39,666 nucleotides of DNA from Methylacidiphilum caldifontis (GCA_945860255.1 CAMAQI010000002.1:1-39666); one strand, 5' to 3'; counted from the stretch's first letter, positions 3,824 to 27,685 are shown. Made by a program: numbers and translations. The notes: a model not told the origin generated them from the sequence alone.

Positions 3824-5548
3824 TTACTTCCGTGGTGTTGCACGGCTCGCCACTTTAAAAATTAAATCAAGTACCTCAACCACTTCTGGGTCAATTTCTT
3901 TGAGAGGAATGAAATCGGTCAAACCGTGGTAATCGCGCTTGAAAATTTGCTGAGGCGTCCCCAACCGTTCATAGTAAGTCGAGAAAAGGGGATCTAAAAA
4001 ATCGTCCGTCACTTTGATGTCGGATCCCCATGGATCCGGTCTCTTTGCGATTTTCAACGCATTCACCAACTCGTCGATCCATTGTTCCATGATCGAACGA
4101 CGTGTTTTTCGCTCCGCATCGTCCACCAGATCCCCTTCGATCAAACCTTGCTCAATTAAAGCAAGAATACTTGCCTTTGAGGTAATGTAGTTCTCTATTT
4201 CCCGTTTTCTCCACATTTTTTCGACAAGGACTGGATTTTTATCGAGTTCCTTTTTAAGCCTGTCAAAGATCGCCACTCCGACCAAATCCGACTTTGCCTC
4301 CTTTAATCCCCAAAAATGATCGCGGGCACCCTGAGGTTGATTATTCCCCAGATAAATAGCGGGTGTTCCCTCGCTGAGATAAATTTTGGACGGATGATTC
4401 AACCTATCTGCGAAACGACGCAAAATGGCGAGATCCGTCGACCCCTCCAGATAAATCATCCAGCCCTTTTGCTCGGCAAGGTAATAATCCGACATTCGAA
4501 TGGATTCCAAAGACTTCCTGACCTGGTTTCTTGAGCGAACGTCGATGCGATGGGGTTTCCCAATAAAAGCCACCACCACATCCCTGTCCGCCGCCTCCTG
4601 TAAAACAACCTCCGAGTGACTCGCTGCAATAATCTGGGAATTTTGTTTTTCCGCCAGCCCAGTTAAAAGATTGTAAACATCCCGTTGTCTTAAAATTTCC
4701 AAATGCGCATCCGGCTCATCCAATAAGATAATGGATTGAGGATTGGATAAAACTGCGCATAAAATCAACAACACCTGCTGAAAACCCCTCCCACTTGCTG
4801 AAATATCGAGTACTGCTCCTGATTTTTCCCCATAAGAAAGGGTGATCAAGGACCGTTCCTTGATATAAATAGGATCGTTGAGTTGAACTCCAAAAAGCTC
4901 CGCAACCTTTTCCCGAAGTAATTTCCACCCTTCACCCTGTTCCTTTGAATAGAGAAGCCAACAAAGATTTCTCAAAACTTCAGCCGTCCTTCCCTCCCCA
5001 ATATGAAAATTGATCTCTCCAAGCTCTTTTCGGAATTCTTGTCCCGCCAAACCCGACATGGACGGAATAAATACGATTTGCTGTTGTCTTGCCCCCTCGG
5101 GGACACGCAATCCGGAATCCTCATTCAATCGACAATAAAATGATTCTTCATTCGCATAATAAAAATCCATTGAACAGAGCCACGGTTTATCCTGATGAAC
5201 CCCCTCCGCGACCAACTGGATCAAAACTTTTTCAGTGGTTTGTTTCCCTTCATTTATTTTGTTGTCTTGCGTACGCAGTTCGCTCCATAAAAGTTTTGCA
5301 CTCGGGACAGGAACTGTATTTAAATCCTTTCGGTTGATGGTGACGCCAGATCGCTCGCTCGCCTTGCTTGAATCCCTCTTTTCAACCCATTTTCTCCATC
5401 CAAGATCCCAAAGCGTCAATGCCTGAAGTGCCGAAGTTTTTCCCGAATTGTTTGGCCCAATGAATACGACTGCGTTTCCAAGATCCAATGTAGCAGATTC
5501 CAATTTTTTAAAATTTTTGATGGTGAATTTTGTGATCATTTTAGACAC
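3824..5548 (-). CDS. ABC/SMC-type ATPase fused to a Toprim/DUF4435-like C-terminal domain (OLD / GajA / fused PARIS-like)
   Basis: Walker A GPNNSGKT, signature-like SGRGFQQ, Walker B ILLDEPDAHLE, H-loop SHSE. The C-terminal ~210 aa carry YLEGSTD, AIFDRL and KREIENY motifs. Confidence 0.6.
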   Translation of the reverse strand: MSKMITKFTIKNFKKLESATLDLGNAVVFIGPNNSGKTSALQALTLWDLGWRKWVEKRDSSKASERSGVTINRKDLNTVPVPSAKLLWSELRTQDNKINEGKQTTEKVLIQLVAEGVHQDKPWLCSMDFYYANEESFYCRLNEDSGLRVPEGARQQQIVFIPSMSGLAGQEFRKELGEINFHIGEGRTAEVLRNLCWLLYSKEQGEGWKLLREKVAELFGVQLNDPIYIKERSLITLSYGEKSGAVLDISASGRGFQQVLLILCAVLSNPQSIILLDEPDAHLEILRQRDVYNLLTGLAEKQNSQIIAASHSEVVLQEAADRDVVVAFIGKPHRIDVRSRNQVRKSLESIRMSDYYLAEQKGWMIYLEGSTDLAILRRFADRLNHPSKIYLSEGTPAIYLGNNQPQGARDHFWGLKEAKSDLVGVAIFDRLKKELDKNPVLVEKMWRKREIENYITSKASILALIEQGLIEGDLVDDAERKTRRSIMEQWIDELVNALKIAKRPDPWGSDIKVTDDFLDPLFSTYYERLGTPQQIFKRDYHGLTDFIPLKEIDPEVVEVLDLIFKVASRATPRK

Positions 5549-5642
5549 TCCATTTTTTCATTGCATACGCCTAATATCTGATGCGCTTATGTAAACTTTG
5601 TCCAATATATTTCAATTTTTTTGAAATCGAGATGTACCATGT

Positions 5643-8297
5643 TTAATACGCACTCTGCATTCCCCCCACTGCTTTGGCGAGATCGCTCAGCGATTGATCG
5701 TCGGGAAGCACCACCGTGAACCGACATCGCCCTTCCGCATCGGTCTCCAAGCAATTCCGAAATCCCTTTAATACAGCTTCCTCAATCTCTGAATTCAACC
5801 CTTCACGCTGAGGAATGACTTTGCTGATAAATTTAAAGACGGAGGCCAGCATCTCACCCCCCGCTTTCTGGACTTCCTCTTTGTTAACCTCAGAACCAAT
5901 CACTGGGGTCTCAAGTGTTGGTGTCGGTTTTTGCCCGATCAACACTTCCAAACGACGTTTGAGCTCTTCCATCCCACTGGAAAGTGTGACCTCCTTGACT
6001 TCGGACCCAAAATCCAAAGCAGCCATCGAGAGTTCCTTTTTCGCTCCTAGGGTGGCAAGCAGATTCTCTTCGAGGGTCCTCTCGGTCACAAGAATGAAAA
6101 CCTCAACCGTGTTCTTTTGCCCCATCCGATGCGCACGAGCGATACGTTGCTCGAGCACGGCCGGATTCCAAGGGAGATCGACATTGACCACGGTGTTCGC
6201 CGACTGGAGATTCAACCCCGTCGATCCAGCATTGGTGGTCAGAAAAAGTCGGCACCCTGGATCTTCCTGAAATTCTTTGACCAGACCTTTCCGTTTCTTC
6301 TGCGGAACACTTCCATCCAAACGCACAAAACGGAGTTTTCGTTTTACGAGAAGGGGCTCAATGAGATTGAGCATCGTCGTCCATTCGGAGAAGAGTACTA
6401 TTTTACGCCCGCTCTCGTCGACGAACCGGTCAAAGAGTTCCTCCAGTTTTTTAAGTTTCGTCGAATGTCCTGGTGCGTCCTTAATCACCAGTTCCGTGCT
6501 GTCGGCGACCATGCGGCACATCATCAACTCCTTTTGAAGCTGGATGAGATCCATCTCTGTCAAAAACCGTTTTTTGATGATCGAACTTACTTTTCTCATA
6601 TGCCCGATATGTTGCATCTCCTGCTCTTCCGAGGGAGGAATCCGGACGATCTGTGTGACCCTCGGAGGCATCTCCTTCAATACCAGATCACGCGTGCGGC
6701 GAAGAAGGATCGGTTTTAACTGACGGCGAAGGTGATCGAGTTCCTTGTATCCGAGAATCTTCCCTTTCTCGTCGGCCACACGGTGCCTGTGAAAAAACCG
6801 AAATGCGGGTCCCAGCAAACGCTCGTCCACAAATTCAACAACGGAGTAGAGATCGTCCAAACGATTTTCCAATGGCGTTCCGCTCAAAACTAGAGCGTAT
6901 TTTGATTTCAATTTTTTGATCGTTGCGGAGGTTTTCGCTTCCCAGTTTTTGATCCGTTGCCCCTCGTCCAGAATGATGAGATCCCATTTCACTGGCTCGA
7001 TCGCGACCAAATCGCGCAAAACCTGTTCGTAGTTGCAGATCGTGTAAAAAACAGGCTTTGCATATTGACTGTGACGATCCATCAAACTTCCCGTGATCGC
7101 CTGGGAATCCCGATCACAAAACCGCCGGATCTCCGACTCCCATTGGGACTTCAGCGAAGTCGGACAAATCACCAATACTTTTTGGATTCCGATTTCTTGT
7201 GCGAGGAGTTCTGCGACACCGATCCCTTGAATGGTTTTGCCCAACCCCATTTCGTCGGCCAAAATCGATCGCCCCGCCCCCACCGCAAACCCGATGCCAT
7301 CCATCTGGTATGGGAGAAGGGTCGTTTTCAGGAGTTTCTCCCGAAGCGGATGCTTTGCGGGATTCTGTCGAATCTCCAAACTCAATTGTTGGAGTCGCTC
7401 TTTCCGCAAAATCTTTTCGACATACTCCTCAGCATCGGGATAAATCACCACCTGCTCCCCGGATTTTTCCAATTTCCGGATCGTCCCCAATAGCGATCTC
7501 ACCTCTTCCGCATTCGGATCAACCTGCCTGAAGGGTCTCACTCTTGTCGAGGAATCTTGGTCGGAGGGAAAACTGAGCGAGAGCTCGGTCTCTTTTCCAT
7601 AGCGGAGATGAAGCGTGTAATGTTTGCGTTGATGCGGCTTTGCCAAAACTTTTTTCGAAAATGCATCCTTCACAAAATTTTCAACCCGCATCAAATGCTT
7701 GCAGGTTCCCAAAGTATTTTTTCGAAAATCAGGACAGGTGCAAAATGAGGTTCCCATTTCCAATCCACGGAGAGCGACTCGATATGTTTTTCCAGATTCC
7801 TGACTAAATACATCATAATCCGTCCATGGTCTTTTCTCCTCTTTCGAGGTCACTGTCATCTTCTCTTTCAAAGCCCGTTCACGACGCTCCACAAGCATCC
7901 GTCTTTCCAACTGCTTCTCGTCCAACAGCTCCATGGGGATTTTATCCTCCGGATCCTTCGCTAGGCCGAGCGGTGTCTTTTGATCCAGCAAATAGGTCAA
8001 CGCCGCTCCCGCCTCGGGGATACACTTTTTCCCTTCGGAGCTTCCCCACTTTAATCCAAGTTTGGACCCGAGGTCCTCCTCCAACCAGAACTCGTAATGG
8101 CGAGGGATAAAAAATGAGACCGTAAAACGCTTATCCGTGAGACGAACATCAGAAGGATCGATCTCAAATTTTCCCCCTTCTGCCATCGCTTTCCGGCCTT
8201 TGGAACCAAGCAATTTGCAAGATTGGATGTAATTCAATCGGGAAAGTCGGTCGAAAAAAGTGAGTTTTTTTGCGGAACGAGTAGCGTAGGGATTCAT
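5643..8297 (-). CDS. SNF2/RAD54-family SF2 helicase with N-terminal SWIM zinc finger
   Basis: SWIM CTCPDFRKNTLGTCKH. Helicase motifs LADEMGLGKT, DEGQRIKN, LSGTPLEN, TNAGSTGLNL, QRIARAHRMGQ. The first in-frame ATG is at 8297 (a TTG lies at 8336). Confidence 0.85.
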   Translation of the reverse strand: MNPYATRSAKKLTFFDRLSRLNYIQSCKLLGSKGRKAMAEGGKFEIDPSDVRLTDKRFTVSFFIPRHYEFWLEEDLGSKLGLKWGSSEGKKCIPEAGAALTYLLDQKTPLGLAKDPEDKIPMELLDEKQLERRMLVERRERALKEKMTVTSKEEKRPWTDYDVFSQESGKTYRVALRGLEMGTSFCTCPDFRKNTLGTCKHLMRVENFVKDAFSKKVLAKPHQRKHYTLHLRYGKETELSLSFPSDQDSSTRVRPFRQVDPNAEEVRSLLGTIRKLEKSGEQVVIYPDAEEYVEKILRKERLQQLSLEIRQNPAKHPLREKLLKTTLLPYQMDGIGFAVGAGRSILADEMGLGKTIQGIGVAELLAQEIGIQKVLVICPTSLKSQWESEIRRFCDRDSQAITGSLMDRHSQYAKPVFYTICNYEQVLRDLVAIEPVKWDLIILDEGQRIKNWEAKTSATIKKLKSKYALVLSGTPLENRLDDLYSVVEFVDERLLGPAFRFFHRHRVADEKGKILGYKELDHLRRQLKPILLRRTRDLVLKEMPPRVTQIVRIPPSEEQEMQHIGHMRKVSSIIKKRFLTEMDLIQLQKELMMCRMVADSTELVIKDAPGHSTKLKKLEELFDRFVDESGRKIVLFSEWTTMLNLIEPLLVKRKLRFVRLDGSVPQKKRKGLVKEFQEDPGCRLFLTTNAGSTGLNLQSANTVVNVDLPWNPAVLEQRIARAHRMGQKNTVEVFILVTERTLEENLLATLGAKKELSMAALDFGSEVKEVTLSSGMEELKRRLEVLIGQKPTPTLETPVIGSEVNKEEVQKAGGEMLASVFKFISKVIPQREGLNSEIEEAVLKGFRNCLETDAEGRCRFTVVLPDDQSLSDLAKAVGGMQSAY

Positions 8298-8391
8298 GTT
8301 TTGAGGATGAATCCATGTAGAACCTCCGCAAGCCAAAAACTCGCCTTTTTATTCACTTGTGTTCAGATATTTAAATGTCTGAAATTCTTCT

Positions 8392-8991
8392 ATGTCTGAT
8401 AACACCCCTTCTTCCTCAAGCGATCAAGATCCCAATCGATCTGATTTTTCGCCGATTTTTGACGACTTTGTCCGCCCGCTTCTCGACTATGATTCTTGGA
8501 AGAACTCTGAGATGAAAGATGTCATGCGGATCGGCATCTATCTCTGGAATAGCAACCGTCTATCGCCCGAGGCGTATTCCGAACTTCAATCCTTTCTCTT
8601 TCAATCCATCGATCAGGAGCTGCGGATTCTTTTTCAAGGAATGATCGGCTCGAGAACCGGTTTTTTCAAAACTCATTCCGTCTCCATTGAGGATGGAAAA
8701 GTCATGGTCTCCAAAAAATTTTACAACCTCGAATTGAAATTCGGGGACTATCCTCCCGAAATCCTTTTCCCTGAATATATCTGCGAAGCGATGATGGCTG
8801 ATTTTGTCAGAAGTCTTGATGAGTTAGGATTGATAGAACGTCAAATATATGTTCAATTTATGACCCGCTATCAATCAAGGCTCGAGCGCCTTATTGCAAA
8901 AAATGAAAAGCGAATAGCAGAAAACGAAGCGAAAATAGCAGAAGCAAAAACGGCGCTTAAAGATTTTCCCCAAACAATCGAATGTAAGTGA
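8392..8991 (+). CDS. Hypothetical protein with C-terminal coiled coil
   Basis: 199-aa ORF divergent from the SNF2 gene. Has a KNEKRIAENEAKIAEAK tail. No family recognised. Confidence 0.4.
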   Translation: MSDNTPSSSSDQDPNRSDFSPIFDDFVRPLLDYDSWKNSEMKDVMRIGIYLWNSNRLSPEAYSELQSFLFQSIDQELRILFQGMIGSRTGFFKTHSVSIEDGKVMVSKKFYNLELKFGDYPPEILFPEYICEAMMADFVRSLDELGLIERQIYVQFMTRYQSRLERLIAKNEKRIAENEAKIAEAKTALKDFPQTIECK

Positions 8992-9013
8992 CATCGCCAT
9001 TGGCGATAGGCCA

Positions 9014-9163
9014 TCAAACCTTTTCGCGAAGCGAGTCCTCTTCACGGATTTGCTTCATTGCGGCTTTACGTTCACGTTTGGCGACCTTGCGTTTATTAAA
9101 TGGTCGCAAATGTTTCCACCATTCGGGCGGCGATGTTAGAGTATCTTTTCGAGTATGAGCCAT
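9014..9163 (-). CDS. Possible small basic protein (49 aa)
   Basis: MAHTRKDTLTSPPEWWKHLRPFNKRKVAKRERK... preceded on the minus strand by TTGTCA, 17 nt, TATGTT, 10 nt, ATG. Support is weak. Confidence 0.25.
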   Translation of the reverse strand: MAHTRKDTLTSPPEWWKHLRPFNKRKVAKRERKAAMKQIREEDSLREKV

Positions 9164-9334
9164 ACTTGTGACAAACATATATGAAAGTGAAGAAATTGAC
9201 AAGATCACCAGACAAAACTAGGTTGAATTCATGAAAGTCGTCAATGTTCAAGAGGCAAAGATCACTCACGATCAAAACTTGAACCTTATGGCGCAATCAT
9301 CCTTTGGACTTAATTTTTTTCTTTAAGTTTGATT

Positions 9335-10612
9335 TTAAAAAGATCGTGCAGCCCCCATTAAAAATTTGCGCACGTTTTGCCAGCCCACTCCTTCATGATC
9401 CTCGCGGAAATGGGTGTCTAGGCTGAGAAGCATCCGGGGGTATTCATCACCTATCGCCCGCAGAGACCTCAACTCCCTCTCCAGAGTAGATTTTTCTCCC
9501 AGCAGATAGGCCACTTGAATATAGATCCGCCGCCCCTCACGTGATGCCACAAAATCAATTTCGTTCTCCCCCCATCTTCCAACTTCAACCGAATATCCAT
9601 TCGCTTTCAAGTGAAGATAAACGACCGCTTCCAGTTGAATGCCGATATCCTGATCCCGAAATCCAAGAATGGCGTTTCGGATCCCCGCATCCGCTGCATA
9701 ATATTTTTCATGCGTTTCCAGAATTTTTCGTCCCCGAAGATCATGCCGTCGAACCCGGTGCAGCACCCGTGCATCCTCAAAATATTGAAGATATTCCAAA
9801 ATGGTGTCGACGCTCGTTTTGATTTGCTGCGAGCGTAAGTAGTCCGAGATTCGTTTGGAAGAAACCGGAGACCCCGATGTATCCAAAACATATCGAAGCA
9901 CATTTTCAAGCAATCGAACATTACGGATCGCATGGCGGCTGACCACATCCTTAAGAACCACCGTGTTGCCAATCGCCGAGAGATAATCAAACACCGCCAC
10001 ATCTTCGCGTGAAAGCGCGTGAATTCCAGGCATGCCCCCGTGGCGTAAAAATCGTGCGAAGGCCTCCTCCCCCTCCTTTTCCCCAGAAAACTCGAGAAAC
10101 TCAGGATAAGTCAAAGGGTGAACCGGAATCTCAATATAGCGACCCGTTAGCGCCGTTGCGAGCTCCCCCGAAAAAACTTTTGCATTGGACCCTGTCAAAT
10201 AAACATCGACTTCCCCTTCCTTCAGTAGCGAAGCCACCGCACGCTCCCATCCCTGAATTTCCTGAACCTCATCGACCATCAGAACCTTTTTTCCCTTGGC
10301 TTTGGAAAAGCGTTGCTTGGCCTCCCGATGTAGATCCACTCCTGTTCTGATGGAGTCCCACTCCATCTTCTCTTTGTCGACCTCCAGCAATGTCATCCCC
10401 GGATAAGCTTTCTTGAGCTCCGTAGCCCAAAGTCGTAGAAGAGTGCTCTTCCCGACACGGCGCATCCCGGTCAATATCTTGATCAGCGGCTTGAAAGCAA
10501 ACTGCCCTAACACGGGCCTATAACGATTTCGATTATGCACGAAAAAGATAATATCATGCAAATTTATTCGTGTATAGTCGAAATATCTTAAATGGAATTC
10601 CCGATAGCGCAT
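9335..10612 (-). CDS. AAA+ ATPase with DUF4143-type C-terminal domain
   Basis: GMRRVGKSTLL Walker A and LMVDEVQEIQGWERAV Walker B region. The C-terminal region is typical of the archaeal-ATPase/DUF4143 family. Confidence 0.75.
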   Translation of the reverse strand: MRYREFHLRYFDYTRINLHDIIFFVHNRNRYRPVLGQFAFKPLIKILTGMRRVGKSTLLRLWATELKKAYPGMTLLEVDKEKMEWDSIRTGVDLHREAKQRFSKAKGKKVLMVDEVQEIQGWERAVASLLKEGEVDVYLTGSNAKVFSGELATALTGRYIEIPVHPLTYPEFLEFSGEKEGEEAFARFLRHGGMPGIHALSREDVAVFDYLSAIGNTVVLKDVVSRHAIRNVRLLENVLRYVLDTSGSPVSSKRISDYLRSQQIKTSVDTILEYLQYFEDARVLHRVRRHDLRGRKILETHEKYYAADAGIRNAILGFRDQDIGIQLEAVVYLHLKANGYSVEVGRWGENEIDFVASREGRRIYIQVAYLLGEKSTLERELRSLRAIGDEYPRMLLSLDTHFREDHEGVGWQNVRKFLMGAARSF

Positions 10613-10675
10613 TTATCCACCATCGGATTGAAATACATCTCTCTTCCATGATCTCCTACTTTGTCAACTGATTCT

Positions 10676-10698
10676 AGGGACAAAAGACATCATGACAC
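10676..10698. repeat. Left copy of a perfect 23-bp inverted repeat (agggacaaaagacatcatgacac)
   Basis: Exact reverse complement of 13897-13919. Confidence 0.95.
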
Positions 10699-10718
10699 GG
10701 GGCCCCTTCCGGGGCCCC
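10699..10718 (-). terminator. GC-rich hairpin downstream of the 640-aa ORF
   Basis: ggggcccc-ttcc-ggggcccc, 15 nt past the stop codon. There is no clear U-tract on the minus strand. Confidence 0.4.
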
Positions 10719-10733
10719 TTCTAGATTGTTTCA

Positions 10734-12656
10734 TTATTTTTCACTAGTACTTGATTTTCTTCTTTTTGAATCTACGAAACACTGGGCGTACTTTTTAGCC
10801 TCGTCACAAAGATCTTGATAACGCTTTAGCTGATCCCACTTTTCAATTAATGGACTTTTGTTTGGATTCTCATTCTTAAAAAAAATTGAAAATTTCTTTT
10901 TTTCCGGAGGTTTAAAAAAATGATGGAGATATTCTGTTTTCTGAACGGTCTCTTGATACTTTTCATCTGACTTCATCTTCATCATAGCGGATCTCTTTTG
11001 AGATAAAGCAGATCGACTTGGTACCTTATAGTGGATTTGACTCCACCAATGGGGAATGTTTTGGGGTTCCATTTTTTTGAGAGTCGCCAATCCTTTTTCG
11101 GCAAAACGAAGATACGCTTCCACTTTTATAACCGCTTCATCCCAATCATATTCTCCAATGGGAGAAGGTGCTAAATGAGCTCGCAATATTTTTTTGTCCT
11201 CGTGATTTCTACCATAGGTCTTACACCACACCCCGGCGAGATCTATCGCCAATTGATCCAGTGATTCCAATGAATATTTGAATGCTCTTTGATCAACACC
11301 TTTAGAGTCATCTTTGTACTCGAGCAGCCAATTTTTATTCAAGCCCGCTAGTCGGATTTTTCTTTTACCCAGTTGTTCTAAGTCTGCCCAAAAATGTGCC
11401 GCTCTTTTCTTTTGTTCCACTGGAATATCTTGTTCTTTACACAGAAAATCGCCTTGCCACGTTTCTTGAATATATTTTTTCCAAAACGCTGAGGGGGTTT
11501 TAAACTCGGGCGGATAAGAGCATTTTTTATGGATAATCTCTCTAAAAACAGACCAAACTATTTTCTTCTCTTTAACTTCCAGTCTATCAATCGCATCAAA
11601 TAAATGGAGTCCACTTAAAGTTATCGCTTTGTCCATCGTTGGGAATTCTTCACGAATATTAAAGAGAAAATCGGAGGCCGATTCTTTTCGCTGCCACGAT
11701 TCCAAATCTAAATCCTTATTGGATGTTTCAAAAAGATAAGCGAGAAGTAAATCTCCGAGGAAAGCAGCTAAGCGATCTAGGGGCTTTAAATTCTCATTAT
11801 CTTGATGATCGAGATCAACATCATTTAAAAAATCCCTCCATTTTTCTACCTGATCATTTGATAAACTTCTTTTGATCGATTGATCTCTGGATATTTTGTT
11901 ACTTCTAAAGAGATCGCACTCCACAAGCTGGTTTTCACCGACAAGCTTCTTCCATTGCGTCAAATGATCATCATTGTTGAAAATATTTTTAAATACCGAA
12001 GCCGCTTTATTTTGAGGTTGAATGGCTTTTACGGGATTGAAATTGAACCATCGGCAAAGTCGTTGAGCCTCTTTTTTTTGTTCATCTTCATCTTTCCCAT
12101 CCAGTTCAATAAGACGAACAACAATCAATTTTTCATTCAACTTTTGGGTATCTAGATTTATGGTTGATTTTATCTTTTCCCATTCTTCCTTTAAATCCAT
12201 TAAAGTGAGTTCTCTTGATCCTCGTTCCGTCGACAAGAATTCCGCATATTCCTTGTAAGCTGTTTTATCTTCTTCCTTCTTCTTTAATGTTGAATTTTGA
12301 CTAACGAGAAGCAGTCGTCTGTTCCCACTCAGTGCCACCATTTTACCCTCAATCTCAGCAACAATGGGAGGGCCACTGCTTGCATCGGGATTGCTGTTCA
12401 CTAAAAAATGCGGTTTAAAATGCTCTACGATCGATCGATTGAGCTCGATTTCACCTTCCTTTTCGTACCAGCGGTCATTTTCAATCGGGAATTCAGGATT
12501 TCTTTCAATGGGATTTCCAGTCGTCGATAAGCTTTTTTCTAATTTGGTTGAGGCGCATATATCGCCTAAATTCATAAATTTGTAATTGTAACCAACTTTC
12601 TCAAATTCTCCTCCAGATGGCTTGCATATCAGGATTTTTGAATCGGTTTCATTCAT
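10734..12656 (-). CDS. Orphan 640-aa protein with N-terminal ParB/Srx-like domain
   Basis: NPIERNPEFP ... LNRSIVEHF ... PPIVAEIEGKMVALSGNRRLLLV matches the ParB N-terminal domain layout (GxRR box). The rest is Lys/Trp-rich and helical with no recognised family. The gene is markedly AT-rich relative to its neighbours. Confidence 0.5.
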   Translation of the reverse strand: MNETDSKILICKPSGGEFEKVGYNYKFMNLGDICASTKLEKSLSTTGNPIERNPEFPIENDRWYEKEGEIELNRSIVEHFKPHFLVNSNPDASSGPPIVAEIEGKMVALSGNRRLLLVSQNSTLKKKEEDKTAYKEYAEFLSTERGSRELTLMDLKEEWEKIKSTINLDTQKLNEKLIVVRLIELDGKDEDEQKKEAQRLCRWFNFNPVKAIQPQNKAASVFKNIFNNDDHLTQWKKLVGENQLVECDLFRSNKISRDQSIKRSLSNDQVEKWRDFLNDVDLDHQDNENLKPLDRLAAFLGDLLLAYLFETSNKDLDLESWQRKESASDFLFNIREEFPTMDKAITLSGLHLFDAIDRLEVKEKKIVWSVFREIIHKKCSYPPEFKTPSAFWKKYIQETWQGDFLCKEQDIPVEQKKRAAHFWADLEQLGKRKIRLAGLNKNWLLEYKDDSKGVDQRAFKYSLESLDQLAIDLAGVWCKTYGRNHEDKKILRAHLAPSPIGEYDWDEAVIKVEAYLRFAEKGLATLKKMEPQNIPHWWSQIHYKVPSRSALSQKRSAMMKMKSDEKYQETVQKTEYLHHFFKPPEKKKFSIFFKNENPNKSPLIEKWDQLKRYQDLCDEAKKYAQCFVDSKRRKSSTSEK

Positions 12657-12710
12657 ATTGTTTAGAGGAACTAGTTAAGAGAAATTAAATTAATAGTGGT
12701 TTTGCGTCAA
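12657..12710 (-). promoter_or_regulatory. Promoter plus bipartite repeat in the 25-nt leader of the 640-aa ORF
   Basis: Minus strand reads TTGACG (12705-12710), 17 nt, TAATTT (12682-12687), then tctcttaac-tagtt-cctctaaaca (12659-12682) ending 2 nt before the ATG. Confidence 0.45.
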
Positions 12711-12924
12711 GTTTTCTGCTCCGAAATATAAGCCCATGATGCCCTCGTATATTAATAACATGAGAGAAAATCACTATCAATTCTACCGTCCAACCTCTTT
12801 TAACGCATGATATGTGGATTTGTATTCCATCAAGAAAAGACACGTAGTCTATCCGTAAGCAAAATTGCGTAATCTCTAATCAAGGAGGCAAGTTAACAAA
12901 GTATCTCCGTAATAAAGGAATCCT

Positions 12925-13167
12925 ATGCACAAACGAACTAATTATTCTCTAAACAATATTTCTCTAAACATTCAGCTCGAATTTCAATTCATCAATGAAT
13001 TCTTTGATAACTCAATCCCAGAAATTCCCTATCTACAAATAAGTAAGAATAAGCCTACTCCTGAGAGCGAAAGAATTGAAGCAATTCGTGGTGCTAATGA
13101 AGATAGCGCTGATGCCGAATGGGAAATTTACCTAGAAAACCTATCACCTCCTGATGAGGATTATTGA
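12925..13167 (+). CDS. Small acidic protein (80 aa), paralog 1
   Basis: SD-like aagga 5 nt before the ATG. The N-terminus YSLNNISLNIQLEF is shared with the 13551 ORF. Confidence 0.4.
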   Translation: MHKRTNYSLNNISLNIQLEFQFINEFFDNSIPEIPYLQISKNKPTPESERIEAIRGANEDSADAEWEIYLENLSPPDEDY

Positions 13168-13550
13168 TAAGTCACTTATAACAAAGAGTTTAAACAATTC
13201 CACTGTTTTGTAGAACCGTTTTAAGCCCAATAAAATCCACAGTAATTACCCTCGTATATTATAAGTATGAGCAAAAAATACCTCCATATCCTTAGATTAT
13301 TAAAATATTCTTATATATACCTTTACAACAGGTACTTACGAACAATTTATTTCTATTTCGAACATGTAAAAAGCTATAATAATTTACGATTGAAATTTTT
13401 TTATCCTTTTTTGGCAACTCAGTCAATTTCCTTAATTTTTCCTGTAATACTTATTGATATGAACAAAAACGTTATCAATCAACATTTGCGTAATCTTATA
13501 CCAGTGAGACATCTCATCACCATTGGTATCTAAAAGAAAAAAGGAATAAT

Positions 13551-13829
13551 ATGATCAATATAAAAATTAAAGTATATTCTCTTAACTCATTTCCTCTTAA
13601 CATTCAGATGGATTTATTCAGTGATGATCCTCTAATAGTGACTACTCCAATTGTTAGAAAAAAATCACAAAAAAAACGATATAATAACAGAAAAGAGCAA
13701 TTGTACGCAAATCCTGACGAGTATTTCGTGAGCGATCTATTGCGAGAAGGCCACATTAAATGTCCTCGTCTTGAAAGGTTCTTGTCTGCTAAAATTCAAT
13801 CTCTAAGACAATCCAAAAAGATTTCGTAA
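13551..13829 (+). CDS. Small basic protein (92 aa), paralog 2
   Basis: Same SD spacing as paralog 1. The N-terminus YSLNSFPLNIQMDLF is shared with the 12925 ORF. Confidence 0.4.
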   Translation: MINIKIKVYSLNSFPLNIQMDLFSDDPLIVTTPIVRKKSQKKRYNNRKEQLYANPDEYFVSDLLREGHIKCPRLERFLSAKIQSLRQSKKIS

Positions 13830-13896
13830 TTGTTTGAATAAGTTTAAACACTCTTTTAACTTATTCAATGTCACAACTTTTATCGTAAAAGGCGCT

Positions 13897-13919
13897 GTGT
13901 CATGATGTCTTTTGTCCCT
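13897..13919. repeat. Right copy of the perfect 23-bp inverted repeat
   Basis: gtgtcatgatgtcttttgtccct is the exact reverse complement of 10676-10698. Confidence 0.95.
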
Positions 13920-14007
13920 GCCAGCCCATTCCTTTAATAATCAATCTTTTATTAAAGAAACTTGCTATTTTCTTTAATAAGAATATTCTTATTAAAGGGT
14001 TTATCGT

Positions 14008-15168
14008 ATGATTCGATCTGAAACAGGTAATTACAGCATTTCCACTTTAGGGGGAGAGACCGTAAAAGCATTTATTCCTTTATCGCTTCCTCCTGTCCCT
14101 CCCTTGGATCTGACGGGATCTCGCCAAAGGCTACTCGAACGCGCGACGATTGCCGTCGGACGACTCGACAGTGTCGCCACATTGTTACCTGATCCGGATC
14201 TTTTTCTTTATGCGTATGTTCGTCGGGAAGCGGTTCTCTCCTCACAAATTGAAGGAACCCAATCCTCCCTGTCGGATCTTTTACTTTTTGAAATCGATGA
14301 AGTACCTGGGGTTCCTTTTGATGATGTGGTTGAAGTCTCCAATTACATCGCTGCGTTAAACCACGGGATGAATCGCCTCAAAGAAGGTTTTCCCTTGAGT
14401 ACCCGTCTTCTTCGAGAGATGCATGCTCAACTCATGTCCAGGGGTCGTGGAAGTGATAAGAATCCCGGGGAGTTTCGTCGAAGCCAAAATTGGATCGGTG
14501 GCACAAGACCGGGTAATGCACACTTTGTTCCCCCTCCACCCCATGAAGTTGATCGATGTATGGGCGATCTTGAAAAATTTCTTCATGATGATCACTCCAC
14601 TCCACTCCTCCTCAAAGCGGCTCTTGCCCATGTTCAATTTGAAACCATCCATCCCTTCCTCGATGGGAATGGACGATTGGGACGGCTCTTGATTGCTTTG
14701 CTTCTTCATGAAGGAGGCCTTCTTTCTCTTCCACTTCTTTATTTAAGTCTTTATCTCAAAAAGCATCGGAATATTTATTACGAAAAACTGGACATCGTCC
14801 GCACTCAAGGGGATTGGGAAAGCTGGTTAGATTTCTTTCTCGAAGGGGTTGAAGAAACTGCATTGGGAGCGGTTGAAACTGTTCGACGTTTGGGAGCACT
14901 TTTTGAAAAGGATCGAAAACAGGTGCAAGAAACCAAACGTCTTGCATCCAACATCCTTCGCGTCTTTCACGAATTTGAAAAACGCCCCATATTGAATTTA
15001 AAACAGATCTGCCGTGATCATCGAATGACTTTTCCAACAGCCACAAAAGCGGTTTCATCCCTCATCGAAATGGGAATCATCCGAGAAATGACCGGTCAAA
15101 AACGAAATCGATTTTTCGTTTATGATGCTTATCTCAAAATTCTGAATGAAGGGGGAGATCCTTTGTAA
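14008..15168 (+). CDS. Fic-family protein (AMPylase-type) with N-terminal inhibitory motif and C-terminal wHTH-like region
   Basis: Catalytic HPFLDGNGRLGRLL (HPFx[D/E]GNGRxxR). SSQIEG matches the (S/T)xxxE(G/N) autoinhibition motif. Confidence 0.9.
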   Translation: MIRSETGNYSISTLGGETVKAFIPLSLPPVPPLDLTGSRQRLLERATIAVGRLDSVATLLPDPDLFLYAYVRREAVLSSQIEGTQSSLSDLLLFEIDEVPGVPFDDVVEVSNYIAALNHGMNRLKEGFPLSTRLLREMHAQLMSRGRGSDKNPGEFRRSQNWIGGTRPGNAHFVPPPPHEVDRCMGDLEKFLHDDHSTPLLLKAALAHVQFETIHPFLDGNGRLGRLLIALLLHEGGLLSLPLLYLSLYLKKHRNIYYEKLDIVRTQGDWESWLDFFLEGVEETALGAVETVRRLGALFEKDRKQVQETKRLASNILRVFHEFEKRPILNLKQICRDHRMTFPTATKAVSSLIEMGIIREMTGQKRNRFFVYDAYLKILNEGGDPL

Positions 15169-16667: not shown

Positions 16668-16704
16668 CCTTTCCTCTGCGTTCCTCTGTGCGCTCTGCGG
16701 TTAA
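16668..16704. repeat. Solo right arm of the TTAACC-type element (A1)
   Basis: cctctgcgttcctctgtgcgctctgcggttaa: three phased ctctgcg heptads ending in GGTTAA. No left arm was found. Confidence 0.7.
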
Positions 16705-17728: not shown

Positions 17729-17872
17729 TTAACCGCCGAGGGCGCAGAGTAACGCAGAGGAAAAACTCCTAAAACTCTCTGCAAGACTGGAATGCAGGAA
17801 AAAGAATGTTTTGGGTTTTAAAAACAAAAAATAAGAATTTACTCTGCGTATCTCTGCGCCCTCTGCGGTTAA
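17729..17872. repeat. 144-bp palindromic TTAACC element (A2), MITE-like
   Basis: ttaaccgccgagggcgcagagtaacgcagagg ... actctgcgtatctctgcgccctctgcggttaa. Each arm has three cgcagag heptads. Confidence 0.85.
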
Positions 17873-18628: not shown

Positions 18629-18783
18629 TTAACCGCAGAGGAAATCCCTTTTTTAGTTTTTAAAACCCAAAACATTTTTTTTCCTGGATTCCAGCCTTCC
18701 TGAGAGTTTTAGGAGTTTTTCCTCTGCGTTACTTCTTGTCCGCCGTAGTCATTCGACGGAGGAGGATGCCTCCTCTGCGGTTA
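18629..18783. repeat. 155-bp TTAACC element (A3), inverted copy of A2
   Basis: The ~85-nt core gtttttaaaacccaaaacatt...gagagttttaggagtttttcctctgcgttac matches the reverse complement of A2 with few mismatches. Termini are ttaaccgcagagg / cctctgcggttaa. Confidence 0.85.
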
Positions 18784-19938: not shown

Positions 19939-21257
19939 GTCGTAAGGTTCTTTTTTTATCTAATGACCATTCCGTTCCTTTTGCGAAGACGACGGAGTTT
20001 ATGGCCTCCGCCTGTGAGCGATTAGGTCATCAGGCGGTGGTGCGTGATACCTTCCCTTCTCGGATTCAGCGGTCGATGTTGGGGGATAAATCGCAAGTTT
20101 TGCCGATGAAACGCTTAGCTGAGCATTGGACGGAGTTTTTAGAGGATTTACAAATTGATACCGTGTTAGGACTCGATCTCTTTTGGTTGTTTTATCCGGA
20201 ACCGTTTTTTAATTCAACTTCAGTGAAGACCATTGGATCGATCTGGTTTGATGATTTTCGCAGCTGGATTACCTATCCGACCAACGTTTGGTTTTCGAGT
20301 AGTGAGATGAAATTTCAGTCGATCATTCGTCATTCCAAGGTTTGGCATGTTTTTTATGGGGAGAGCATGGCGCAAGAGGCCCGGCTTTTTGGAGTCGATC
20401 AGCAATTGAGTTCACGATTGGCGGCCCCGGCGGAGTTTTTAAAGCAGAAGTTTCCTTGTGAGATCAAAGATAAGGCGGTCTTTATTGGGAATCCCGGTTT
20501 TCGCGGTGCGCCGCATGAGGATGCCATTGATCTCATGAAAGCGGGGGGGGATTTGGTCGCTTTGCGGATGATGAGTCGCGATCATTTGTTACGTGCGGGG
20601 GATGAGGCGGTGCAGAAGTGGTTTCGGTTGGAACCGCAGACTCGGGAGTTACTCGCTGTGGCGATGGAGGTGAAGGCGAAGAATCCGTTTGCTCCCTCTT
20701 TAGAACTTTTGAAAATGGCGGGGGAGATCTATCCGAAGGCCTTTGCTTTTGCGAACGATCATGGGATTTTGCTCGATTTCACGATGTTGGTGAAGTTGGT
20801 GACTCGTTATGATCGACCTGCGCTTGTCATGAGACTTTATGAGAAGGGTTTAGTCGATGTTTTTTCAAACTCTCCGGAGTGGGAACCGTATGGAGTGAAG
20901 GCGGGAAAGAATATTAATTTGGGAGAGCTTCCGGAGTATTATCAGAAATATACCGTGCATTTGAATGGGGCGAATCCGTTGCGGGATGCGACGGGGAATG
21001 AGAAACTTTTTGAGATTGCGGCCTCTGGGCGGGTTTCAGTGAATTTAAGGAGTCCGGATGTCACGAGCTGTTATCCGGAGCCGGAGATCGTTGTGGGGGA
21101 TACCTTGGAGGAGTTGGAGACCAAGACCTGTGAGCTGTTGGCGAATCCTGAGGAGGCCTTGGCGAGAGGGGCGATGGCGAAGCAACGGACGGCACGGGAG
21201 CATTTGTGGGAGCATCGGTTGAAGGTGATTTTGAAGGAATTTGAGAAGAGGGATTAA
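19935..21257 (+). CDS. Putative CgeB-like/GT1-type glycosyltransferase (paralog 2)
   Basis: ATGA overlap with the previous ORF. GNEKLFEIAASGRVSVN and C-terminal HLWEHRLKVIL resemble the CgeB/DUF3880-type family. Confidence 0.5.
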   Translation: MSRKVLFLSNDHSVPFAKTTEFMASACERLGHQAVVRDTFPSRIQRSMLGDKSQVLPMKRLAEHWTEFLEDLQIDTVLGLDLFWLFYPEPFFNSTSVKTIGSIWFDDFRSWITYPTNVWFSSSEMKFQSIIRHSKVWHVFYGESMAQEARLFGVDQQLSSRLAAPAEFLKQKFPCEIKDKAVFIGNPGFRGAPHEDAIDLMKAGGDLVALRMMSRDHLLRAGDEAVQKWFRLEPQTRELLAVAMEVKAKNPFAPSLELLKMAGEIYPKAFAFANDHGILLDFTMLVKLVTRYDRPALVMRLYEKGLVDVFSNSPEWEPYGVKAGKNINLGELPEYYQKYTVHLNGANPLRDATGNEKLFEIAASGRVSVNLRSPDVTSCYPEPEIVVGDTLEELETKTCELLANPEEALARGAMAKQRTAREHLWEHRLKVILKEFEKRD

Positions 21258-21355
21258 CCGCTAAAGGGAAACGCAACCCCGACAGTGAGTACGGGGCAGG
21301 AAAACGCCAAGTGAAGAGGGAATAAACCACTGATCTACATTAATTTTCGCTGATT
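21250..21355 (+). repeat. E-type repeat (E1): TTAACC left arm + conserved 30-mer hairpin + AACCAC tri-heptad arm
   Basis: gggattaaccgc .. caaccccgacagtgagtacggggcagg .. aaccactgatctacattaattttcgctgatt. The upstream gene's TAA lies inside TTAACC, and the element abuts the serpin ATG. Confidence 0.85.
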
Positions 21356-26676: not shown

Positions 26677-26690
26677 GGGGTTTCGGAAAA

Positions 26691-26796
26691 GAGGGATTAA
26701 CCGCCAAGTTAAAGGCAACCCCGACAATGAGTACGGGGCAGGAAAAGGCCAATGCTGCATGACTAATCACTGATCTGCACTGATTTTCGCTGATTT
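26691..26796 (+). repeat. E-type repeat (E2)
   Basis: gagggattaaccgccaag .. caaccccgacaatgagtacggggcagg .. aatcactgatctgcactgattttcgctgattt. Starts 14 nt after the lpxK stop and ends 11 nt before the next ORF. Confidence 0.85.
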
Positions 26797-27488: not shown

Positions 27489-27493
27489 AATGG

Positions 27494-27685
27494 AGAGGGA
27501 TTAACCGCCACTCCCTGCGTGATAACGCAATTAAAAATAGGAAACCATTTGGAGAGCCGAGGGTAGGCAACTAGAAGCTGGGGTGAGAAGGGGCTTCGTA
27601 GGAAAAGTCAACCCCGACAATGAGTCGAGGCAGGTAAACGGCATGTAAAGAGAGTATAACCACTCATTTGCACTTATTTAGCTCA
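27494..27685 (+). repeat. E-type repeat (E3) with ~85-bp internal insertion
   Basis: gagggattaaccgccact ... caaccccgacaatgagtcgaggcagg ... ataaccactcatttgcacttattta. Confidence 0.75.

Follow-up and report, generated by a model that had tools for sequence, protein, structure and literature searches.

A compositionally foreign 3.2-kb segment between the arms of a perfect 23-bp inverted repeat, and its 100-nt counterpart, in a defence island of freshwater Verrucomicrobiota

The insertion sequences (ISs) IS1397 and ISKpn1 insert into the centres of repetitive extragenic palindromes (REPs) and bacterial interspersed mosaic elements (BIMEs), and members of the IS110/IS1111 family insert into REPs or attC sites. 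In the pdif modules of Acinetobacter plasmids, genes lie between inverted XerC/XerD sites, and the cargo is often of the toxin-antitoxin or defence type. Mobile insertion cassettes (MICs) and miniature inverted-repeat transposable elements (MITEs) hold passenger DNA, or none, between IS-type inverted repeats and are moved in trans (MIC231; TnXax1 MICs, PMC4337579, from which the MIC concept is taken here). Proteins of the DdrB-like ParB family (PF18763; phage P1 DdrB; Iyer et al. 2017, PMC5512222) are nearly always phage-borne, and their hallmarks are an arginine and an Asp/Asn that ends strand 2. Here we describe a locus that shares features with each of these systems. It is located in a 39,666-nucleotide stretch of DNA listed under Methylacidiphilum caldifontis (GCA_945860255.1 CAMAQI010000002.1:1-39666), which is referred to below, at its full length of 39.7 kb, as the window. 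In this window, a 3,244-bp AT-rich segment (10676-13919) is bounded by a perfect 23-bp inverted repeat, lies between the genes of a DUF4143 ATPase and a Fic protein, and encodes an orphan protein of 640 aa, p640. We favour, with slightly better than even confidence, the reading that a hairpin element already lay between the DUF4143 and Fic modules and that its loop was replaced by horizontally acquired cargo.

The comparison with the four described systems revealed both similarities and differences. As in insertions of the IS1397/ISKpn1 type, the insert would be flanked by the halves of an older palindrome, which mimic inverted repeats of its own; those ISs, however, encode a transposase, which the cargo does not, and here the loop centre would have been replaced rather than split. 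As in pdif modules, a module without a recombinase is found between short inverted sites, with alternative contents at one place, whereas the 23-mer is not dif-like, the context is chromosomal and only one site pair is known. The similarity to MICs and MITEs consists of perfect terminal-looking repeats, the absence of an internal transposase, and the occurrence of both a long form with passenger DNA and a form of about 100 nt made of repeats plus spacer. In contrast to MICs and MITEs, the window contains neither a target duplication nor a related IS or transposase, the repeat is confined to a single locus, and the short-form core shows no relationship to the long-form interior. The N-terminus of p640 aligned with DdrB-like ParB proteins and retained the NPD, GPP and G-N-x-R motifs together with the arginine of the superfamily, although p640 falls below the level of Pfam detection, has no peptidase or other domain of polyvalent proteins, and is encoded in a chromosomal island rather than among phage late genes. 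On this comparison, the arrangement works most like a palindromic-unit insertion or a pdif-type module, and its likeness to MICs is superficial; the defining traits of these kinds were lacking, with no transposase, target duplication, further copies, or dif or attC cores.

The inverted repeat and its alleles in sister strains

The left arm of the repeat (a', 10676-10698) has the sequence AGGGACAAAAGACATCATGACAC and would represent the 5' half of the stem of a palindromic element; the right arm (a, 13897-13919) has the sequence GTGTCATGATGTCTTTTGTCCCT. The two arms are reverse complements of each other at 23 of 23 positions, and the inverted repeat reached further inward, to 36 nt, at 86% identity. 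No additional copies of the 23-mer with up to three mismatches were present in the window, and 100 dinucleotide-preserving shuffles yielded none; the exact 23-bp repeat is beyond chance expectation. The left junction was spanned by contigs L002 and L003 and the right junction by contigs L004, L025, L032 and L033, which came from four further samples and other assemblers and were identical in sequence to the window. An assembly artefact is excluded, because independent assemblies span both junctions. As a preliminary description made from the sequence alone had noted, no target-site duplication was found in the window; no direct repeat of any kind flanked the arms, the outer flanks being ...gattct on the left and gccagc... 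on the right.

We found no exact match to the 23-mer in 596 Gb of genomes and in metagenome contigs of the Joint Genome Institute (JGI), and no match to a 20-mer from the arm in viral contigs; the source contigs are outside these collections, so both results indicate only that the repeat is not widespread. In about 0.5 Mb of sister-strain DNA and in the window, the arm motif did not occur away from this locus, and the repeat is thus not the common dispersed sequence that the preliminary description had considered as one way of being wrong. A degenerate third arm directly to the left of the left arm was also considered, and its alignment (p of about 0.02, uncorrected) was unconvincing.

Two irregularities of the assemblies were observed. 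Between 13415 and 13550, where the DNA is 73-79% AT, the assemblies from three samples were broken or gapped (L002, L003/L025 and L032), and low coverage or local heterogeneity could lie behind these breaks. Additionally, the Logan contig L004 (3,296 bp, sample ERR11523720), which covered 10677-13972, ended 1 nt short of the left arm's outer edge; at its other end, its overlap with the following contig, L026, was exactly 30 nt. This suggests graph branching at both points in that sample.

Alleles of the junction in sister strains were retrieved from public assemblies through exact DnaN, SNF2 and Fic proteins. Scaffold L040 (sample ERZ19569483) was 99.65% identical to window positions 4365-10710 and contained the same DUF4143 gene and flank, followed by arm a' (23/23), GGGGCCCCTTCC, 32 nt, AAAAGGCGCC, arm a (23/23) and the linker accagtccattcc. 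In this short form, the arms were 54 nt apart and the element measured exactly 100 nt from arm to arm; it was non-coding and formed a long hairpin with a folding energy of -35.6 kcal/mol (DNA parameters; z -8.5). Homology between L040 and the window stopped at 10710 on the left and restarted at 13887 on the right, such that 32 nt in L040 correspond to 3,176 nt in the window. The cargo therefore spans 10711-13886 (3.18 kb), with about 10-12 nt of the loop base left on each side, and its right edge is marked by an inner clamp (AAAAGGCGCT, 13887-13896) that the short form has in common (AAAAGGCGCC). The long and short forms are true alternatives, because the 32-nt loop centre of L040 has no counterpart within the window interior. 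Both forms were recovered from the same sample, ERZ19569483, the long one as L032 and the short one as L040.

The remaining alleles differed in how much of the repeat they contained. In L047 and L052, a solo arm a (23/23) and the linker were located directly upstream of Fic; REP-like DNA and a SET-domain gene came before the arm, and the homology to the window stopped at 13894. The 13-nt linker (gccagcccattcc, 13920-13932) travels with arm a in the window, L040 and L047/L052 and is missing from the armless alleles. L005, L053 and L054 had no intact arm, and in these the Fic module began at 13933/13934. L005, whose Fic protein is 97.7% identical at the aa level, contained a diverged arm pair (15/16 and 18/22 matches) beside a GC hairpin, approximately 190 bp upstream of Fic. 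The arms of this pair abut outer-end to outer-end (a-15 nt-a'), whereas the window and L040 have the order a'-loop-a, and this geometry excluded an insertion into an L005-type hairpin. No relative was found to have the same gene content at this locus without the repeats.

The interior of the long form was compositionally foreign. The GC content of the 3,244-bp segment was 35.8%, compared with 44.2% for the window, which makes it the lowest-GC stretch of 3.2 kb there, and the GC content at third codon positions (GC3) was 0.345 in the 640-aa open reading frame (ORF) compared with 0.51-0.55 in the DUF4143, SNF2 and dnaN genes. The AT-rich character that had been noticed by eye was thus borne out by both measures.

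On the demonstrated anatomy, alleles, foreign composition and domain homology, we build the reading that cargo replaced the loop of a hairpin; in it, the compact form would be the older one and entry would have been at the hairpin loop. A palindromic intergenic element (arm, 54-nt loop, arm; 100 nt) would first have lain between the DUF4143 and Fic modules. Foreign DNA of 3.18 kb would then have taken the place of the central 32 nt of the loop, so that the two halves of the stem came to lie far apart as arms; the extruded hairpin might, for example, have been broken and repaired, or integration might have been directed to the loop. The arms are not the cargo's own termini, because they persist without cargo. 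The direction of insertion is favoured because the interior is compositionally foreign, and a loop-directed event is favoured over an unguided deletion because the breakpoints are at the loop base, separated from the arms by 12 and 10 nt. The preliminary description had proposed a horizontally acquired cassette with transposon-like termini; foreign, orphan genes agree with the first half of this proposal, whereas the second half is not supported, since L040 retains both arms without the cargo and no target duplication, further copy or cognate transposase was found.

Several observations weigh against this account. The change could also have run the other way, the short form being a product of deletion in situ. 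No enzyme that could carry out an insertion is seen, and no mechanism can be assigned to it. The compact element is known from a single scaffold, where it lies 125 nt from the scaffold end, and its arms are flanked by TA on both sides, as would be seen in a MITE of the IS630/mariner type, although TA also simply extends the palindrome to 24 bp. The end of contig L004 at 10677 hints at heterogeneity at the outer boundary of the arm, which a cargo in a hairpin does not require and which the pair of long and short alleles, diverging at 10711, does not explain. Finally, the function of p640 is derived from remote homology, with low confidence in both structure models and Foldseek matches that were not significant.

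Alternative origins of the bounded segment

The alternative that survived best is that the 3.2-kb unit is a transposable element bounded by terminal inverted repeats, either a MIC mobilised in trans or an element that p640 mobilises through an unrecognised activity, and that the 100-nt form is an internally deleted, MITE-like derivative at the same site. We regard this origin as unlikely, although it has an appreciable chance of being correct. The 23-bp repeats are perfect and terminal, MITEs classically arise through internal deletions that spare the ends, and TA dinucleotides are present on both sides of the L040 arms. Additionally, L004 breaks off at 10677, on the left arm's outer edge, and the diverged arms of L005, abutting by their outer ends, resemble a junction of ends. 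The TA/TA of L040, however, only lengthens the palindrome, and no target duplication accompanies the arms in the window. The 23-mer has no second copy in the genomes, JGI contigs and sister-strain DNA described above, nor does the 20-mer of the arm occur in viral contigs. The window contains no transposase, and p640 has no DDE, HUH or recombinase signature, its C-terminal part being predicted to be all-helical. The 32-nt core of the short form is not derived from the long form, and it would be a coincidence if a random in-situ deletion had stopped so near both arms, within 12 nt of each. A transposable element also predicts empty sites without arms, and the search for empty sites that the preliminary description had suggested gave the opposite result: L040, without cargo, keeps both arms 54 nt apart, and L047 and L052 keep one.

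A second alternative, which we hold to be improbable, is that the arms are sites of a host-encoded, site-specific recombinase and that the DNA between them is an exchangeable module, as in pdif modules or recombinase-mediated cassette exchange. The same arm or arms bound three different contents, namely 32 nt, 3.18 kb and the unrelated REP/SET DNA of L047, with breakpoints 0-12 nt from the arms; the module is without a recombinase of its own, and sharp junctions recur in the island. Against this, the arms contain no attC cores (RYYYAAC/GTTRRRY) and are unlike dif/XerCD sites as known from the general dif consensus, no recombinase gene is located nearby, and a single locus is known. Homologous recombination in the conserved flanks could also swap the alleles.

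More doubtful still is the proposal that the cargo is a new, non-canonical kind of mobile module and enters extruded palindromic hairpins at their loops; p640 would then act as a structure-specific nuclease or NTP-driven integrase, the TTCTCTWAAC boxes described below would serve as control sites, and the 100-nt hairpin would be an unoccupied target or a footprint. There is as yet no evidence for a new mobility mechanism.

It is even less probable that the 23-mer is a shared regulatory site, such as an operator or leader, of the flanking genes and is unrelated to the arrival of the segment. Each arm faces a flanking gene, whose start is 64 nt away for DUF4143 and 89 nt away for Fic, and an arm is found upstream of Fic in L047 and L052 as well, with a diverged one in L005. 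The Fic alleles L053 and L054 and the DUF4143 homologues elsewhere are nevertheless armless, and the two copies form a single hairpin in the short form. The arms were also considered as promoters, and this was rejected because matches to promoter consensus sequences were no commoner than in shuffled sequences.

The least credible alternative, an invertible phase-variable switch flipping between the arms, can draw on inverted repeats that bracket a segment between two outward-facing genes, on a module of GC hairpin plus arm that is reversed relative to L005, and on the break of L004 at the arm edge, but every arm-crossing contig from five samples had the orientation of the window, L004 passes the right arm unbroken, no invertase gene is present in the window, and the short form with its 54-nt spacer is unable to invert.

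The cargo and the ParB-like protein p640

The largest gene of the cargo encodes p640 (10734-12656, minus strand), which consists of an N-terminal DdrB-like ParB/Srx domain (residues ~16-188; 12093-12611, minus strand) and a C-terminal part of about 450 aa that is predicted to be all-helical. A word-index search of 5.8 billion clusters recovered no close homologue of p640 other than itself, and nine matches, all weak, emerged when 1.84 billion representatives were scanned exhaustively with HMMER. Seven of these nine remote relatives contain PF18763 (DdrB-like ParB) at the aligned position. p640 itself had no direct match to Pfam even at E <= 10. Upon alignment of p640 and its nearest homologue, P0003, with the PF18763 regions of P0004-P0010, hhalign gave 99.3% and an E-value of 8e-21 over residues 16-188, which agrees with the ParB/Srx N-terminus initially recognised by eye. 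In the alignment A8, N89-P-D91, G95-P-P97, G111-N112-x-R114 and R181 were invariant. The family hallmarks are therefore retained in p640, with R114 as the active-site arginine and N89-P-D91 supplying the Asp/Asn of strand 2.

Structure prediction added little to the alignment. A model of the domain on its own had a pLDDT of 61, and its top Foldseek ranks were PadC, the ParB-N of pNOB8, ParB-CDP and sulfiredoxin, all with E >= 0.67 and thus not significant; the full-length AlphaFold model (pLDDT 41) was unusable. Searching the PDB by sequence returned only noise, and the C-terminal 450 aa had no relatives beyond a partial match to P0003. No loci related to p640 or P0003 were found in metagenome and viral contigs. 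The context of P0003 (contig L028), which includes sigma-factor-like genes, a faint TrwB match and a ribbon-helix-helix (RHH) gene, with no surrounding inverted repeat, was uninformative.

Judged by its sequence, p640 belongs to the DdrB-like ParB family as a new and divergent member, and its chromosomal, non-phage context is atypical. By family precedent, it would be an NTP-binding/hydrolysing or a DNA-cleaving/nicking module, as in conflicts between phage and host, and the cargo probably acts in defence or counter-defence. Such a role fits because p640 is located between two defence-candidate genes, although p640 matches no known defence model in PADLOC. We also found that p640 is not a fixed partner of the DUF4143 or Fic gene, because these neighbours occur without it (L040, L047, L005, L053 and L054).

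The cargo further contains two small ORFs on the plus strand. p80 (80 aa, 12925-13167) has an acidic C-terminus and no family match, and p92 (92 aa, 13551-13829) is basic; an ORF of 88 aa with 27% GC is implausible as a gene. The preliminary description had called the two small ORFs paralogous. Both are present, but their likeness is restricted to an N-terminal patch of 14 residues, which is in fact the translation of a motif at the DNA level. This motif is a box pair, TTCTCTWAAC-N4/5-TYCTCTWAAC; all three of its occurrences are inside the cargo, each in the sense direction of the gene beside it. The first box pair (TTCTCTTAAC-tagt-TCCTCTAAAC, 12660-12683, minus strand) is non-coding and ends 3 nt before the p640 ATG. 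The second (12945-12969) is located within the 5' end of p80, and the third (13577-13601) is followed 6 nt later by an in-frame ATG (13608), at which p92 may actually begin. In a motif scan, all four exact copies and two of the 11 copies with one mismatch, six in all, fell within the segment. The shared box pairs point to common regulation of the cargo genes, and the cargo would behave as one regulatory unit, with box pairs before the p640 start and probably the p92 start and inside the 5' end of p80. Comparison of p640, p80 and p92 with Pfam, PADLOC, PHROGs and NCBIfam gave no match, and neither DNA nor protein searches of phage and plasmid collections revealed a match.

At the left edge of the cargo, CGGGGCCCCTTC is present as a perfect tandem duplication (10698-10721, TRF), of which the first 12-mer, extending to 10710, is common to the short form; the short form has a single copy. 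On the minus strand, the duplicated CGGGGCCCCTTC folds as GGGGCCCC-GGAA-GGGGCCCC into a terminator-like GC hairpin of 8 bp, 12 nt past the p640 stop codon, with a DNA folding energy of -15.9 kcal/mol (z -4.3). In L005, GGGGGCGGTGCGCCCC adjoins a diverged arm. The left-edge hairpin probably insulates the DUF4143 promoter from read-through of p640. At the other end, an AT-rich hairpin (TTGAATAAGTTTAAA-5-TTTTAACTTATTCAA, 13834-13868, plus strand) directly follows the p92 stop codon.

Genomic setting and meaning of the arrangement

The window contains dnaN, gidA/mnmG and lpxK, and its cumulative GC skew turns at approximately 14.5-15 kb; it is chromosomal DNA near oriC of a freshwater Verrucomicrobiota lineage. 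The relatives retrieved through DnaN were metagenome-assembled genomes of uncultured Verrucomicrobiota, with DnaN identities of 99%, 99%, 97% and 84%. Gene order to the right of dnaN was kept in L005 and L007, whereas the region to the left, downstream of dnaN, was different in every relative. The segment is located in this mosaic, hypervariable defence island, as was expected from the sequence, and the matches of its neighbours in PADLOC agree: the DUF4143 gene matched PDC-S01, the Fic gene SoFic, and the SNF2 gene models of the ZorD/DpdE type. An AAA_15/21 ATPase gene and a Phd/ParE pair are also present to the left of dnaN. None of the sizeable ORFs of the window matched a recombinase, transposase, integrase or invertase domain, consistent with the impression given by the segment itself. 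Rfam (gathering and E-value thresholds) and a tRNA scan gave no match. The AT-rich DNA was considered as a part of oriC and rejected, as DnaA-box matches were at chance level.

The flanking genes diverge from the segment and belong to separate modules. The gene of the DUF4143/AAA_14 ATPase (9335-10612, minus strand) is outside the cargo and adjoins the short form in L040. It travels as a single-gene unit (L034-L037); for a protein with 89% identity encoded elsewhere, only the coding sequence was homologous, in an unrelated neighbourhood and with two copies on contig L035. The DUF4143 homologue P0011 was accordingly set aside as a source of empty sites, its homology being confined to the coding sequence. 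The Fic module (13933-15168, plus strand) consists of a promoter palindrome and a SoFic-like Fic_N/Fic gene (14008-15168, plus strand) and abuts the stop codon of dnaN. Its left edge at 13933/13934 was conserved to the exact base among three unrelated alleles, where its left neighbours were an RluA-like gene (L005), an SNF2 gene (L053) and a type I-C CRISPR-Cas locus (L054). This position, at the beginning of the promoter palindrome (13931-13998), is a recurrent recombination junction.

At the other end of the Fic gene, Tn7-like elements of sister strains use the 3' flank of dnaN as an insertion site (L044, 1620-1900; L007, about 11116; L006, about 1806). The ends of these elements, for example TGTGACTGGAACCATAAGTTGACC, followed by repeated CTCAGCTTATGGGTAAATTT sites, begin 18-21 nt past the dnaN stop codon, and the equivalent position in the window is about 15152 (18 nt past the stop). 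A TniQ gene is present in L044, and in L052, from the same sample, Fic is cut down to 385 aa, with cargo genes behind it. A quick literature search found no description of dnaN as a Tn7-like attachment site. The island of the window was checked for such an end at dnaN, as in L044, L006 and L007, and there is no TGT end at that place.

Other repeats were observed in the window. The MazE/PemK pair is flanked by an inverted repeat of 84 nt with 93% identity (17748-17831 and 18650-18733), made up of members of a REP-like palindromic family, TTAACCGCAGAGG...CCTCTGCGGTTAA, which has seven or more copies in the window (also at 16670, 37718 and 37876); this arrangement is retained in L005 and partly in L007. 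Between 31225 and 35340, ParE and PIN toxin-antitoxin cassettes form an array and have repeats of about 110 nt between them (93-94% identical, 3-5 copies), with the inverted ends CCCCAAGC...GCTTGGGG. The array recalls cassette arrays separated by attC sites, although the window is without an integrase. An intergenic module of about 110 nt, containing the hairpin AACCCCGACAGTGAGTACGGGG and AACCACTGATCT..., is present in two to three repeats (21243-21355, 26686-26795 and 27490-27645). The genome has several other palindromic intergenic repeat families, and the REP-like ones are multicopy within the window. As the MazE/PemK genes are bracketed by a repeat of a palindromic family, genes between palindrome-derived repeats are not unusual in this organism.

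For the scanning of genomes, the locus is a caution: a perfect inverted repeat around foreign DNA may be the two halves of an invaded host palindrome and not the mark of a transposon. The long and short alleles, which co-occur in one lake metagenome, provide a natural pair for comparing the hairpin with and without the 3.2 kb. With its candidate operator boxes, p640 offers a tractable chromosomal system for the poorly understood DdrB-like ParB family. If the hairpin loop was the point of entry, this suggests a way in which defence islands may diversify, with palindromic intergenic elements serving as landing pads for cargo without a resident recombinase.

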